DNA from: Paramecium tetraurelia
Taxonomy: Eukaryota
Reading direction: 5' to 3'
Assembly: GCA_000165425.1 (NCBI GenBank)
Contig: CT867986.1
Location: 1 to 64,000 of the forward strand
Length of the DNA: 64,000 nucleotides
Part shown: positions 6,329-14,498 of the stretch, piece after piece
How positions within the stretch are numbered: position 1 is the first letter of the stretch
Layout: each line of letters opens with the position of its first letter
Made by a program: the position numbers and the translations under genes
The notes under the pieces: generated by a model
Databases searched by the model: none
The model's input: only the letters and a program-made list of their open reading frames with translations
Told to the model about the DNA's origin: nothing

Positions 6329-6420
6329 TACTTATAAAAACGAATATTATTTGATTTATGATATCTATAGTAATTAAGTTTGTATATTGTATTGACAAAT
6401 TTATTATAAATTAAAATCAA

Positions 6421-9400
6421 ATGGAAAATTATCATGTGTTACATTTAATTGGTGAAGGCTCTTTTGGGAAGGTATATAAGGGAAGATGGAAGAAAAGTAA
6501 CTAGATGGCTGCTTTGAAGTTCATAAGTAAGAGAGGAAAAACTGAAAAAGATTTAGCAAATTTGAGATAAGAAATTGAAATATTGAGGAGATTGAAGCAT
6601 GAAAATATAATATTATTATTAGATGCATTTGAAACGCAAGGGGAATTTTGTTTAGTAACTGAAGTAATTTTAATTGTTTCTATTTATTAGTTTGCATAAG
6701 GCGAATTATATGAAATTTTGGAGGATGATCATAATCTTCCTGAAAGTGAAGTCAGGAAAATTGCGTAATAATTAGTTAGAGCACTTCATTATCTTCATTC
6801 TAACAGAATTATTCATAGAGACATGAAACCTTAAAATATTTTATTATCTGCTAATGGAGTTGTTAAATTATGCGATTTTGGATTTGCAAGAGCAATGTCA
6901 ACAAATACACAAGTTTTGCATTCCATTAAAGGTACTCCGCTTTACATGGCGCCAGAGTTAGTTCAAGAACAGCCCTATAATCACACAGTCGATCTGTGGT
7001 CATTGGGGGTGATTTTGTATGAATTATTTGTTGGCTAACCTCCATTCTACACTAATCAAATTTATTCCTTAATTCAACTTATTATTAAGGATCCTGTCAA
7101 GTATCCTGACAACATGAGTCCAGAATTCAAAAGTTTCTTAAAAGGACTCTTAAATAAAACTCCTTCTGATAGATTAGGATGGCCAGATCTACTTAATCAC
7201 CCTTTTATACAAGAGTCTGATTAAGAAAAATATGAAAGGAAAAAAAGATTAGAATAATATAGTTAATGGGCAGGAGTGGAAAATGAAGTGATTGATAAAC
7301 GCAAAAGATCCTTAACGCCGACAAGGGATATCATAACTTATGATTAAAGTAAGGACACAAGAGATGTGTCGCCTAGAAGAATGCCTTGTAATGATGAATA
7401 TTGGGTTAAATGTGAATAAATCGCTAATGATGTTCAAGGAGCCACTTAATTAAGATGTGACCCTGGATTCTTAGATAAGCTACTTCAAGTGTTGACTCCT
7501 CCAAAGAAACCATCATTGCATTGCGCTTTGAAAGTCTTTGGATAAGTTATAACTAAAGGAAATTAATAAGAGGGCTTGGATGTTGTGAAAAATTAATAAA
7601 TCCCTATTTAATTAGTAACTCATGTGAAAAGTATTCTTAAATAAGGTAGTTCTGAGCTGCTATCTGAATTAATTAAAACAATAGGTCTTTTAGCCAAAGC
7701 TACCTTTGATAAAAATATAGGAATCGATAATGTCTTTATCAAGTTTATTGGAATGACTGCCCAAATTTTAAAGATTGGATAAAATAATGAATTAATCAAC
7801 ACAATCAAAACTATTGGAATATTTGCTAATTAAGCTAGTCTAAATCCAGTAAGATCTGTGTTATTTTATAAAGAATTAGTTGAGCATAACTTAGCTTAAG
7901 AAACCGCCAAATTAACAAAAAATAATATTACTCTTCACAAATTTGCTACTTAAGTAATTGGTGTATTGATACATCCTATTCATGGGGAAATATTTAGTTT
8001 CCCATGGAAGAAAGGATATTCTATTTAAATTTAAAATTTTAATGAAGCTTTGCCATTGTTTGAGTCTTTGAAAAATCAAATTGTTACTGCATATGCTGAT
8101 ATTGATCATATGAAAATTTATAATGAATAAGATGAATAATAAAATTTAACAAGAATTTCTGTATTAAGAATCCTATTATAAATGATTAGAGTAAGTAAGG
8201 ATGTTCACGTTCCTAAAGAGCTGATTAGTTAGGCCCTTAATTCTGATGAGGCATTATTTTAAGGCACTGCTTTGTTGATCTTAGTTCAATAATATAAAAA
8301 TAAAAATTAGGAATATCAAGTGAATTTATCATAAGTGATCGAAATCTTTGAAAATAATATTTAGATTAATCCTATTGTTTCTTTATCTGCAATTTAATTG
8401 ATTGCTGAATTATTATAATAGGAGACTAATTTTACAAATCAATTACTTAGCTATTTTAGTTAATAGCTTCCCTATAAATTGTTAAGTGACCTAGTCAATC
8501 CAAATAAAAAACAAAATAGAACAGAAGAAATCAGAAAACTAGAAGGTAGTAGTTTTGGATGTCCTAGTTATGGATTTGTCGATGGAGTCATTACATTATT
8601 ACAAAAACTACTTTTTAGATATAATAAGGAATAAAAGAAATTAACTGATCTTTTTTAATTATTGGAAAAATATGAAATTCATCAATTATTATTTTAGATA
8701 CTACTAAATATCACAAGCAGGAATGACGTATCTCCAAAAGGATTCGTATCTTTATTGATATTGATTCATGATTCAATATACTCTAATTTCAAAGCATTAG
8801 GATAATTAATATTTTAGGATAATTCAATTAGGATTTTATGTTCTTTTTTAAAAGAAGCTTAATTACAAAGCATCTAAGAATGGCCATCTTCCAGTGGAGG
8901 AGGTATGGCTTGTGTAAATGTAATGAGCATTTAAATTATTCGAATCTTCATTTTGGCATTCTAAGAACAAAATTGTGATAATGTATTTAAAGAATTGAGT
9001 AATTAAGAAATAGTTGCTTTGACATTAAATTTGATTAAATATCTATAGAAGGATCATATATAATTAGTTATTTCATTCATTTCAAGATTAGTAGGAAATA
9101 ATGAAGAAGATAAACAGTTTGCATAAAGTTTTGTTTAAAATAATGGATTGGCAATCTTATAAAAATATTAAATAATGAGTGTGGATTCAATAAACATCTT
9201 GTCTTAATTAGCTAGGATTAGTAAAGATTTTTATCCAAATATACATTCGATTAATTTATACAACGATTTGAAATAGCAAATTTAATCTCCTGATTCAAAT
9301 GTTAGAGCAAAAGTTTGCAATTTAATTGGCAATTTATGTAGACATTCTTCTTTTTTTTATGAACATTTACTCAAATTTGATTTAATTAATCTTTGCATCA

Positions 9401-9895
9401 AATGTTGTCAAGATCCAGATAAACATACTCGTAAATTTGCTTGTTTTGCAGTTGGAAATGCAGGCTTTCATAGTGATAGATTATATGAACAGCTAAGACC
9501 TGTAGTGCCAATGCTGGTTGACTTACTAAGAGATTAAGAAGTATCTTTTTCATTTAAATAAAGGAAAAAACTAGAGCAAATGCAGCAGGAGCATTAGGAA
9601 ATTTTGTAAGAAATTCTAATGCCTTAACTAAGGATTTGATTAAACATGGAGCTTTGCATTAATTGCTAGAATTAGTGAAAACAGACAAAGGATCTCAACC
9701 TACAAGAATATCCTTATTTTCTATAGGAAACCTTTGTGCATATCCTGAGTGCAGAAAAAAGTTTGAAGAATTACAAATAAGATAGATAATTGAACTGACT
9801 TTAGTAAATTTAACATTAATTTTAAGGCTTAAACTAAGGATTAATAAATATTAAAATATGGTAAAAGAATATTAATTAAACTTGATGAGAATTGA
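6421..9895 (+). CDS. STK36: Fused/STK36-like Ser/Thr kinase with C-terminal ARM/HEAT repeats
   Basis: [63 protein letters not shown]-terminal [41 protein letters not shown]; introns near 6664-6690, 9541-9563 and 9805-9826. Confidence 0.92.
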
Positions 9896-10663: not shown

Positions 10664-12308
10664 ATGATTGAGAACATCGTGTATTTTAAAATGAAACACG
10701 AGGCACAGACATATAAAATTCCAATATAAGGTGTGAATGTGCAATTGAAAGATTTACGTCAAAAAATAAAAGATTTTCTTAGTAACAAATTTAAATATGA
10801 AAATCTAGAAATGCCATAAGCGTAAAAAGGATAGTCCAATTAAAATTTCGAAGAGCTAGTTATCTATGGAGAATTGGAGTAGAACGGAGGATAAGAAAAA
10901 GCATTAGGATTGGCTGATAAAGTAGCATAATCAATGTAATATTTGATTAGGTGAGAAATAAATAAACCGTGATAGTGGTAAGACAACCGTACCAGTAGGG
11001 CCAATCGTTGTGTGAGTCATGCCTATCTGCGAGAAGCACATCTTAGACCCCTTGTTGTTAGAGGAGGATATGCCAAGGATGTGAAGAACAATTTGTCAAA
11101 GTTACGAAGTGTTTCTTTAATGAGCTACAATAATGTCCATTTAAATATGTCAATTATCAAGTTTAGACTATCAAGTAATAAACTGAGATTTCCAACGCAG
11201 AGTTGGAATAATAAATTAAAAATGCTGTTTTTTTTATTGTTAAGAGTAACACCGAACAGAATGTGATTTTGGCCAAAACTCACGATGTTTGGGCTACTAC
11301 TCGTCGTAACTTTGGGACTCTTATGGATTAATTTAATAACAAAAAAGTCATATTGATTTTTATTGCTAATCGTGTTGAAAAGTTTTTGGGTTGTGCTAAG
11401 ATGAAGAATATACAAGTTCCTCGAGATCCTAAATGGTAATGGTGTGGTACATCTACTATTCAATTGGCTGATAATTTTTCAGTTGAATGGTTAAGGAAGG
11501 GTACTGTTGATTTTGCCAAATTGTAAGATACGATTAATCCAAAAACAGGCGATCTAGTAATCAGGAGTAAAGATTGTTAAGAAGTTCCAGCTGTAATGAT
11601 CCTATTATTAATTTTATTTATCAGGATATTGGTCAACGTATATGTCTATTGTTTGAATAAATCAAATAAAACGACGAAGAATAAGAACCGGTGCCCCAGC
11701 CTTAATAAGAGCCTACTCCCAAAAAGGAAGAGATCGAATGGGATTACAATCAAATAATTTGTATATTCAATTAATTACAATTAATTAAAGCTCCTGCTAA
11801 TGCAAGTCCAGTTAGAGAACAAACACGGAAATCACCAAGTCGGTCCCCTAGCAACGAGAACATCCCTTCACAAAATATATAATTAAATGAGGCATAACAT
11901 GCTTTATTAAATTAAACATTAGCATCGTGGGCATAATAATAATAGATGGAAAATAACTGGAATAAGATGAATATGGGTAAAATACCTGGATTGACAGGAA
12001 AGGTATAATATCCACATCCATTTCTATAAAAATATGGTTAAAAACATAACAAAATGGCAGAAGTTTTATTATAAATGGTGTAAAAAGAATCTGAAAGAAA
12101 GGACAAAGAAAAGAAATCTTCAAGTCATTCTAAAAAGCATAAAAAGAAGAAAGATAGAGATCGTAGTTCCTCTGAGGAAAAAAGGAGATCAAGTATCATA
12201 ATTTAAATAACAATAGGGAAAAAAAGGAAGGAACGAAAGGATAAAAAATCAAAGCATAAAAAGAGAAGTCGAAGCAGATCAAGAGATCATAAGAAAAAAG
12301 AGTATTGA
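10664..12308 (+). CDS. RBBP6/Mpe1-like DWNN + RING protein fused to a YTH domain, with Lys/Arg/Ser-rich tail
   Basis: DWNN: MIENIVYFKMKHEAQTYKIPIQGVNVQLKDLRQKI...VRNKQTVIVVRQP; RING-like: CESC..TPCCQRRICQGC..CFF..CP; YTH: FFIVKSNTEQNVILAKTHDVWAT..VILIFIAN..FLGCAKM..WQW..FSVEWL..INP..VIRSKDCQEV; tail KKRSRSRSRDH; several short introns. Confidence 0.85.
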
Positions 12309-12371
12309 TTATCAATTTCGCATTTATCATCAAAACATTTATTAAATTTTTTGTTTAATAATATGAAATCT

Positions 12372-14498
12372 TCAGAGTTTGTTTTGTTTAAATTTGTTTG
12401 CTATTTCTTCAAATAATTTCTCCGAATGTTTGTCATCATATTTCTTTTTCTATTTTAGATTATATTTATTTTTAGGAATAAAAAACTTTGATATCTATTC
12501 ATTGCTGTACTATTAAACAATTTGTTCAATTTCCTTTTATATATATTAAGAAATAGGTAAACCTAATGCTATAAAACTCAATTTAACATAATATTAAGAG
12601 AGTTTTAGCATTGTTATTTATAACTGTAATTTCCAATAATCCAGCTCATCATCAATTAAAATGCATAAGTTTATCTTTTTCTATTTCAACTAAAACTTTT
12701 CTTAATTTTTTTAAAATAATTCAATAAGCGAAGTGAATCTCATTTCTTATTACTATCTTTGATTAAGAAAATAAAATTCCTAATTCATTTATTGATTATT
12801 CTCATTCTTATTAACGTAAACCAATTCAATTCTCTTAGAACTTGAAATATCTTTAAAACCTTTCTGATAACTTTATGTTAAATTATCTATAACTAATTTC
12901 ATAGCTTCAGTCAAATTAATCAATAATACAAAAATAGATTCATTATCCTCTTAATCATCGTTAGGACCTAATTCTTTTAGAATAGGCAATTCTTTCAAAT
13001 CTTTATAAAAAATAAAAACATCCTTAAATGATTAATTATTTGAATTTTGTTCTAATTTGATTAATTAACTTAAAGATTAAAGTAATTATTCATTATAACT
13101 TTCAATTGAAATCTACTTTAGCATTTTTAGAAGATTATTAAGCTTAAATAATTGTTACAACTATTCAAGGAATTTTTCTGTATTATCCATAAATACTCTT
13201 GATGTGAAAATAGTTTCAAATTCTTATTATTGAAATGCAACAGACAACTAATTCTGAAGTATCATAACTAACTTTTTAAGATGAGCTTTTTAATCCTGTA
13301 GAGATTTAATTTCAGTTGAAAACAATTATATATATAGCTTTAAAGTATCAATAATTATATTGTCCTATTTTATAAGATAATCTAATTTTGAAATAGCATT
13401 TTTAGATAAATTGTCAAGTTTAGAAATCATTTATTCATCAATATTATGAATCTTTTAGACAGAACATTCACTTTAATTAATTAAAGATAATTATTCTAAT
13501 TAAGTGACTTAAGCATTTGACACTGCTAAACATAAGTCATCAAATAAATGACAATCTATTGATTACCAATTGCAAGTGTTATTGATAATTGATGTGATTA
13601 TTTTTAAAATTAATGAGATTGTATGAAATTCATCTGATCTATTATCATTATCAGTTTAACTTAATAATTAATTGGTAACTCTTAGTATTTCTGAACATTC
13701 ATTTTTCAAACCTGAAACTGTGAGTTCAGAAAATTTCTTGAGAGTAGCTAGGAATGATTTTTGTAAAATTTATAAAATGTGACAAATTTAAGTTGTCTTA
13801 TTAATTTTAACATTTTATGTACTAATTTCTATGCCTTTTTCAGCCAAAAACAAAGTCTTTGGAGCAACTTTATCTGTTAGTTCTGATTGATTAATAATAG
13901 TGCTTACTTTTTGATCTAGAATATCTTGTTATTAATAAGATACTAATTATTACTTAATATTTGTAAAGGCTTCTCGAAAATCTTTCTAAATTTGGTAAAT
14001 ACTTTTCCTTGATGATCTTTTAATAATATATTCTGAATTAAAATTATTTTTTTCTGATTTAAACAAAGCATTCAAAGTTTCTAGAACTTTAATAGGTGTT
14101 GGCTATTCACTTATTACTATTGTGATAAATTAAATAAAATATTTGGATTTAACTTCTTAAATTAATTTTTCTAAGGATTCAGAATCCAATGGTTCTCCCC
14201 CATCTGTAATTAATATTATTGTGATGTATTATGGAAATTGAGCTGATAATAAATTTAGAAATATTTGATTGAGAGATTAGTTTAGATTTCCAAAATCAGC
14301 TCCGATAAATGGATTGATCTAACTTAAGCCTTTTGTCCATTAATATTGCTGTCTTTCTGTTTAACTAAAATCATTAAAAACTTCATTGTATGTTGAAATG
14401 ATTGAGTGATATTCTCTTTTCATTGAGTTTGTACCATCAAATAGGGTGGATATGAGTTGTTTTGGCAAAGGTGCTTAATAAAGATAATATGAACTCAT
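12372..14498 (-). CDS. VWA-domain-containing protein (~708 aa)
   Basis: MSSYYLYQAPLPKQLISTLFDGTNSM (MIDAS-like) and ITIIIITDGGE; start-to-TGA length is a multiple of 3. Confidence 0.7.

Follow-up and report, generated by a model that had tools for sequence, protein, structure and literature searches.

Plant and apicomplexan 3'-end processing complexes carry a YTH domain, the reader of N6-methyladenosine (m6A), on one of their core subunits, and the locus described here raises the question of whether ciliates have placed such a reader on a different subunit, the one that partners the cleavage endonuclease itself. The locus is a single gene at positions 10664..12308 (+ strand) of a 64,000-nucleotide stretch of Paramecium tetraurelia DNA (assembly GCA_000165425.1, contig CT867986.1, positions 1 to 64,000), referred to below as the window. 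It is expressed as one transcript, and its single product combines a ubiquitin-like (UBL) domain of the DWNN type, a cysteine cluster resembling a RING, a DC-type YTH domain whose pocket is intact and a tail rich in Arg, Ser and Lys (RS/K). On balance it is more likely than not that the gene represents the RBBP6/Mpe1 lineage in a divergent ciliate form, i.e. a CPSF73 partner that reads m6A, lacking the zinc knuckle of that lineage and carrying an added DC-type YTH domain and an RS-like tail. An earlier note on this DNA, made from the sequence alone, had pointed to the same combination of domains.

Gene structure and transcription

The gene extends from an ATG start codon to a TGA stop codon (12306-12308), as defined by translation in the ciliate code (table 6), splicing, public orthologue models and RNA-seq. 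Three reading frames at the locus (table 6) are connected by five short GT..AG introns of 27, 29, 32, 30 and 24 nt (10782-10808, 10922-10950, 11593-11624, 11761-11790 and 12193-12216, +), leaving six exons (10664-10781, 10809-10921, 10951-11592, 11625-11760, 11791-12192 and 12217-12308, +). In an alignment the 500-residue spliced product agrees letter by letter with the public P. tetraurelia protein GSPATT00004230001 (P0007, 510 residues) except at intron 4 (11761..11790, +), which is 30 nt long and in frame and is retained in that model, adding ten residues. The same intron is spliced out in the aligned P. sonneborni and P. octaurelia models, and its removal agrees with loose RNA-seq read ends at 11760 and 11791. 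The 90% cluster to which the protein belongs holds six full-length proteins of 500-510 residues (P. tetraurelia and P. octaurelia contribute two apiece, P. sonneborni and P. pentaurelia one apiece), publicly named just 'YTH domain-containing protein' in every case; a retained ohnologue of the gene, GSPATT00035788001 (P0006), is 93% identical. The DNA of the window is accordingly macronuclear.

Transcription was followed in two stranded oligo-dT raw runs (X21 and X22, 58-nt reads), with X1 (DNA-contig-like) and X7 (covering the neighbouring gene only) left out. Coverage is gapless and on a single strand from ~10663 to ~12300; the depth is mostly 5-50 (extremes ~2 and 49), is 0.55-0.72 in the bin just before the start, is at most 0.37 in 12296-12366 and is 0 beyond 12367. 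The splice joint 11592>11625 (GT..AG, 32 nt) is called directly from the reads, and loose read ends at 10809, 10923/10944, 11593/11625 and 11760/11791 bear letters of the neighbouring exon, which fits introns 1-4; loose ends instead of called joints are expected where 58-nt reads span such tiny introns. For intron 5, where the depth is low, no joint or loose end is found among the matches listed, and its call is taken from the orthologue models. A second letter is present in 20-50% of reads at many positions in the gene, and the loose-end consensus at 11760 (five and six reads) is unlike the window. Both are read as the result of reads cross-mapped from the ohnologue GSPATT00035788001, from which it would follow that both gene copies are expressed. 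We also weighed a programmed frameshift at 10949-10954 but rejected it, since the change of frame there is explained by the 29-nt GT..AG intron, which has both reads and orthologues behind it.

A locus with three reading frames and a public model that retains an intron could in principle reflect adjacent DWNN and YTH genes that were falsely merged in annotation. Exon 3 (10951-11592), however, by itself encodes the last DWNN strand, the cysteine cluster and most of the YTH domain, so that the fusion is independent of any splice call; together with the continuous one-strand RNA-seq, the joint or loose ends at introns 1-4 and an identical domain order in 16 unrelated representatives (see below), this leaves a merged model with almost no credibility.

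The K/R/S-rich, RS-like tail (~12085..12305, +) is interrupted by intron 5 in the translations, has a pLDDT (predicted local distance difference test) mostly below 55 in the predicted model and resembles the SR/K-rich ends of other family members. The extent and content of the gene that the earlier note had given are borne out by the match of the spliced table 6 translation to the public protein, and its RS/K-rich tail is present; the RNA-seq points to a single transcript, and every motif that the note quoted is in the sequence, including DVWAT (W191) and PKWQW (W241).

YTH domain

The YTH domain comprises residues 170-302 (11227..11657, +; split by intron 3, 11593-11624). The Pfam YTH family (PF04146) matches exon 3 alone (E = 6.8e-26, 91 bits) and all six full-length Paramecium orthologues (E ~1e-29; 100-102 bits, the cut-off being 22.1). 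A single-sequence phmmer search of the PDB ranked the YTH domain of AtCPSF30 first (5zuu, 5.8e-19), then that of Toxoplasma CPSF4 (7ng2, 7.8e-17) and YTHDC1 (~1e-14), with weaker matches to YTHDC2 (1e-9) and, at 1e-4 or weaker, to the DF proteins and Mmi1 (Mmi1 ~4e-4). The family profile likewise placed 5zuu at the top (1e-52; Mmi1 1e-17). By these sequence comparisons, the nearest relatives of known structure of the Paramecium domain are the YTH domains of the CPSF30/CPSF4 subunits of 3'-end processing complexes.

Three residues line up with the m6A pocket: W191 (11290-11292, +), W241 (11440-11442, +) and L249 (11464-11466, +). W191, in DVWAT, and W241, the second Trp of PKWQW, are aligned to the pocket Trp residues of YTHDC1 and AtCPSF30, and L249 is aligned to a Leu of YTHDC1 at a position where AtCPSF30 has Tyr. 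N181 (the Asn of KSN..N), K175 and D285 (the Asp of KDCQE) align with pocket and RNA-contact positions of YTHDC1 and AtCPSF30. W191 and N181 do not vary across the 39 family members aligned, and conservation is at least 90% for W241, L249, K175 and D285. The predicted model of the domain (pLDDT 93-96) superposes on YTHDC1 with Z = 22.2 (r.m.s.d. 2.1, 149 residues) and on AtCPSF30 with Z = 20.1. Foldseek matches YTHDC1 with E = 1.8e-13, and with the whole model as query it returns YTH entries only among the matches listed. As judged from the alignments the m6A pocket is intact and of the W-W-L type, and the YTH domain that the earlier note had placed at about 11220-11660, with its cage Trp residues, stands. 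Within PKWQW (11434-11442) a TAA codon read as Gln lies between two Trp codons, placing a reassigned stop codon inside the m6A-pocket motif.

A close animal counterpart is YTHDC1, a nuclear m6A reader with the same YTH fold, W-W-L pocket and charged RS-like flanks; unlike the Paramecium protein, YTHDC1 is without DWNN or RING and works via partner proteins, not within the cleavage machinery.

An intact pocket bears on what the domain might bind. YTH domains that recognize an unmethylated RNA motif, like that of Schizosaccharomyces pombe Mmi1, do exist and are matched, weakly, by both searches given above, and a domain of this kind would mark transcripts for processing or decay without m6A. This is improbable here, with every one of the three pocket residues conserved family-wide, as are the contacts made by Asn and Asp, and Mmi1 ranking far below the DC-type and CPSF30-type domains.

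Ciliates also have abundant DNA N6-methyladenine (6mA), at ApT sites near the 5' ends of genes. The YTH domain could read this base in single-stranded DNA instead of m6A in RNA, in which case the protein would couple RNA processing during transcription to a mark on chromatin: its pocket is YTHDC1-like (W-W-L), YTHDC1 complexes with N6mA DNA oligonucleotides are among the Foldseek matches (6wea and 7l4y), and the readers of ciliate DNA 6mA are described as unknown in the available part of PMC12695648. The same part of that source, however, locates ciliate 6mA in double-stranded linker DNA downstream of transcription start sites, not at 3' ends. With RNA m6A writers reported in ciliates, and RNA readers as the nearest relatives of the domain, a role in reading DNA is improbable.

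DWNN domain and cysteine cluster

The DWNN-type UBL domain occupies residues ~3-92 (10670..10995, +) and is split by introns 1 (10782-10808) and 2 (10922-10950). The whole Pfam DWNN profile (PF08783, 1-74) aligns in six of six Paramecium orthologues with 17.5-20.1 bits. A hidden Markov model (HMM) made from the pre-YTH parts of 22 non-Paramecium relatives matches Paramecium residues 1-93 (34-36 bits, E ~1e-8 computed at Z 40000, a proteome-sized search space). Against the PDB the family profile matches Mpe1 from the UBL through the RING (7zgp_F, 1.2e-12), the Mpe1 UBL (6i1d_B, 2.2e-12) and the RBBP6 DWNN domain (2c7h, 1.5e-10), and a search with the alignment profile gave at least seven matches, among them RBBP6 proteins from animals (4.4e-11 to 3.6e-6). 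Comparison of the predicted model of residues 3-92 with 48,161 representative chains gave its closest match with the UBL of Mpe1 as crystallized with Ysh1 (6i1d_B; Z = 11.8, r.m.s.d. 1.4 A, 78/88 residues), followed by the RBBP6 DWNN domain (2c7h; Z = 10.3), with ubiquitin and other UBLs at 8.4 or below. A structure search of the ESM Atlas with residues 1-150 returned DWNN clusters in 10/10 of the matches listed. The presence of an N-terminal DWNN-type UBL domain, as the earlier note had read it, is supported by the profile of the relatives and by the model, although its Pfam score is below the cut-off. Single-sequence searches of the PDB were less informative: phmmer gave no match for exon 1 alone and no DWNN or RING entry for the query P0001.

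Downstream of this domain, eight Cys residues recognized in the alignments form a RING/U-box-like cluster from C98 to P140 (11011..11139, +) with the pattern C-x2-C-x10-CC-x4-C-x2-C-x9-C-x7-C. The first six have the spacing of the family (T.CC....C..C), whereas the last pair is respaced relative to the family C-P-x-C; the Pseudocohnilembus and P0088 relatives retain C-x2-C at this pair. The family profile matches the RBBP6 RINGs (3ztg, 2.2e-8; 2yur, 3.6e-8) ahead of those of TRIM, COP1 and RING1B, and several family members pass the Pfam zf-C3HC4 or U-box models. No Pfam RING match was found in the window exons or the six Paramecium orthologues. Profile-profile alignment (hhalign) of the Paramecium cluster gave a P-value of 2e-4 over 28 columns, and a 61-residue model (pLDDT 72.5) gave Z scores of at most 4.8, mostly to RING/U-box domains among the 50 matches listed, with the RBBP6 RING at just 3.1-3.5. 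The cluster is probably homologous to RING/U-box domains and may have lost its E3 (ubiquitin ligase) function. Of the RBBP6-style RING proposed in the earlier note, the eight-Cys cluster remains, and the RING match of the Paramecium sequence itself is weak.

The likeness to human RBBP6 and yeast Mpe1, which are subunits of CPSF (cleavage and polyadenylation specificity factor) and its yeast equivalent (CPF), respectively, covers the N-terminal DWNN domain, a putative RING/U-box-like cysteine domain that follows it and a basic RS-like C-terminal tail. The Paramecium protein differs in having no CCHC zinc knuckle, almost no linker between DWNN and RING, a respaced last Cys pair and an added YTH domain, and it is much shorter than animal RBBP6.

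Several observations weigh against membership of the RBBP6/Mpe1 lineage with a retained role in cleavage. The Paramecium DWNN scores lie under the Pfam cut-off of 26 bits; the domain model leans towards the DWNN fold because unmistakable DWNN proteins are part of the alignment behind it, and two inserted loops (~41-53 and 60-76) have low model confidence. In the first strand, Paramecium has Met10 at the conserved Phe of the family (rFk), and if the superposition is ungapped this residue would correspond to Mpe1 F9, which lies at the interface and in which the F9S mutation is deleterious according to the available part of PMC6436931. The family RING HMM is not significant on Paramecium alone (E 2-9). 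No zf-CCHC zinc knuckle was found in the window exons and six orthologues (Pfam, E up to 1), nor in the 16 representatives that have both DWNN and YTH (E up to 0.01 or 0.001). Mpe1 has an RNA-sensing segment between its UBL and RING; Paramecium has ~7 residues between the end of DWNN (P90) and the first Cys (C98), and such a gap leaves no room for a segment of this type. In addition, Paramecium may have a separate canonical RBBP6, leaving the DWNN-YTH protein as a side branch.

An alternative is an RBBP6-derived paralogue outside CPSF, for example an adaptor or E3-like protein that reads m6A in the nucleus and serves RNA surveillance, export or splicing; its DWNN domain would act as a generic UBL, and cleavage would be left to the canonical protein. 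The missing zinc knuckle, the degenerate RING, the Met in place of the conserved Phe and the RS-like tail, which is typical of splicing-linked proteins, all suit such a paralogue. However, the Mpe1 UBL fits the DWNN model better than any other UBL does, the YTH domain is closest to CPSF-linked YTH domains, and the only ciliate-labelled DWNN cluster among the Atlas matches is the YTH-fused one (the search sees clusters of at least 50 members). A paralogue outside CPSF is therefore regarded as a real but minority possibility, and a CPSF73 partner of the RBBP6/Mpe1 lineage remains the preferred reading.

Distribution and origin of the architecture

The spread of the domain pair was assessed in 140 of the best 150 representatives (50% identity; exon 3 as query), scanned as 34 + 106, with eight long proteins, P0001 and P0009 left out. 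DWNN at or above the cut-off (27-60 bits) lies upstream of YTH in 16 of the 140; RING is paired with YTH in five more, and CCCH zinc fingers with YTH in thirteen, the latter being plant and apicomplexan. Several 'YTH-only' relatives look truncated, since they begin mid-protein and still show the end of DWNN (..ERVPIE..) or a RING. In a search with P0016, a clear member, both Pfam families are present in 50/120 clusters among the matches listed (precomputed annotation). In the Atlas, P0007 adjoins a cluster of 94 proteins that is machine-named 'DWNN/YT521-B-like' (YTH in 100%, DWNN in 96%) and whose commonest phylum is Ciliophora, with the phylum known for three members only. The partners of DWNN in the Atlas searches and Pfam scans are of the RBBP6/Mpe1 type or YTH, and no other. 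The named organisms in the family are Paramecium species and Pseudocohnilembus persalinus (P0011, the model of which is without DWNN); the whole family is likely to be ciliate, a label with few named members behind it. Judged by these domain matches, DWNN with YTH is a family architecture and not a Paramecium oddity.

No published description of a DWNN-YTH fusion or of any ciliate YTH protein was found among the papers listed from the full-text literature, subscription-only papers and figures aside, in keeping with the earlier note, which had known of no described DWNN-RING-YTH architecture; the papers that came up for the domain pair deal with yeast Yth1 or with RBBP6. PMC8313237 mentions neither ciliates nor RBBP6, and the available text of PMC4738411 contains no DWNN-YTH architecture. 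The gene, under its generic name, and the domain pair, in machine-made clusters, are already public; what is new is the RBBP6/Mpe1-like protein as the carrier of the YTH domain.

The origin of the YTH domain was examined in a tree of 89 YTH domains over 142 columns (LG+C20+F+G4), from which six rows had been dropped for length, duplication or long branches and in which the bootstrap was not fully settled. The ciliate domains (41 rows) form a single group (99/95), within which Paramecium groups with P0002, Pseudocohnilembus and P0031 (98/94). Next to the ciliate domains stands a group made up of apicomplexan CPSF4 (Toxoplasma, Babesia and Cardiosporidium) and RRM/KH-YTH proteins (80/76), and the following join is with plant CPSF30 (Sesamum, Musa and Pteridium; 80/76). 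A quicker LG+G4 tree of 139 rows instead has plant CPSF30 as the neighbour of the ciliate clade (82). The trees suggest weakly that the ciliate YTH is close to CPSF30-type YTH domains, with a sister group that is unstable between trees. Given this position, a carrier switch of one CPSF-linked YTH domain fits at least as well as independent recruitment, and the 'independent ciliate solution' put forward in the earlier note is doubtful, to the extent that the weakly supported join (80/76) to the CPSF4/CPSF30 types can be relied upon.

Plant CPSF30-L and Toxoplasma CPSF4 can also be compared with the ciliate protein: both have a YTH domain on a core 3'-processing subunit, as the ciliate protein would too. 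The ciliate carrier is RBBP6/Mpe1-like, and the third pocket residue is Leu where AtCPSF30 has Tyr. No Pfam match to the CCCH zinc-finger families of CPSF30 was found in the window protein or the six orthologues.

Two further observations concern the relatives. P0031 (1777 residues), which lies inside the ciliate YTH clade, has its YTH domain at the extreme N-terminus and a weak cyclic-nucleotide-binding match far downstream; its gene model may be a merger, or the protein may have another architecture. Tandem YTH domains, two or three in number (two to three Pfam stretches), occur in P0012, P0014, P0033, P0037 and P0054, which are relatives outside the ciliate clade.

Neighbouring genes

Upstream lies a gene at 6358-9639 (+) for a protein of 1093 residues, in which a Ser/Thr kinase domain (Pkinase, E = 6.6e-78) lies N-terminally and HEAT repeats C-terminally; within the kinase domain, one odd stretch looks like an unspliced in-frame intron. 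Downstream is a convergent gene at 12372-14498 (-) for a protein of 708 residues without a Pfam match (E up to 0.001), and no reads were found over 12367-12550 in the two RNA-seq runs.

The stop codons of the DWNN-YTH gene and its convergent neighbour are separated by a spacer of 63 nt (12309..12371, no strand assigned), as seen in the open reading frame table and the RNA-seq depth. Since the convergent stop codon is only this far away and transcript coverage ends in the spacer, the 3' untranslated region and poly(A) site must both fall inside 12309-12371.

Proposed function

By analogy with known systems, the ciliate protein is inferred to bind CPSF73, to bind m6A and to affect cleavage. In yeast the UBL of Mpe1 is the part that binds Ysh1, and deletion of the UBL is lethal (available part of PMC6436931). 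The DWNN domain of the Paramecium protein would correspondingly bind the metallo-beta-lactamase face of CPSF73, while the YTH domain would bind m6A on nascent pre-mRNA, placed there by the ciliate METTL3 and METTL14 orthologues. Such orthologues are described as AMT4 and AMT3, respectively, in Tetrahymena, in which RNA m6A has been measured (available part of PMC7145601), and as PbAMT4 and PbAMT3 in P. bursaria (available part of PMC10173741). The nuclease activator would thereby be recruited to, or retained at, methylated 3' regions, and cleavage and termination would be favoured in a genome with convergent genes ~60 nt apart. The 63-nt spacing at this locus suits the idea of cleavage steered by m6A, and m6A-assisted polyadenylation has precedents in CPSF30-L in plants and CPSF4 in Toxoplasma (available parts of PMC8313237 and PMC6545605).

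A bolder version of this proposal, which we hold only tentatively and think unlikely in its full form, is that the ciliate nuclease activator gave up the elements with which it had sensed RNA itself, the zinc knuckle and the stretch after it, and took on a YTH domain in their place. An m6A mark close to the 3' end would then belong to the poly(A) signal and would directly license the CPSF73 cut, and the YTH domain would be an old CPSF-linked module, carried by CPSF30 in plants and apicomplexans, that was transferred to RBBP6 in the ciliates.

The amenability of Paramecium to RNA interference by feeding makes the role of the protein testable. If the proposed role is correct, ciliates would be the third lineage, after plants and Toxoplasma, and RBBP6/Mpe1 the second subunit in which an m6A reader has entered 3'-end processing, which would speak for a physical connection of the cleavage machinery with m6A reading that is ancient and has recurred. 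The gene would also offer a handle on the role of RNA m6A in ciliates, in which study has been of DNA 6mA only, and on how cleavage and termination stay precise where convergent genes lie ~60 nt apart.

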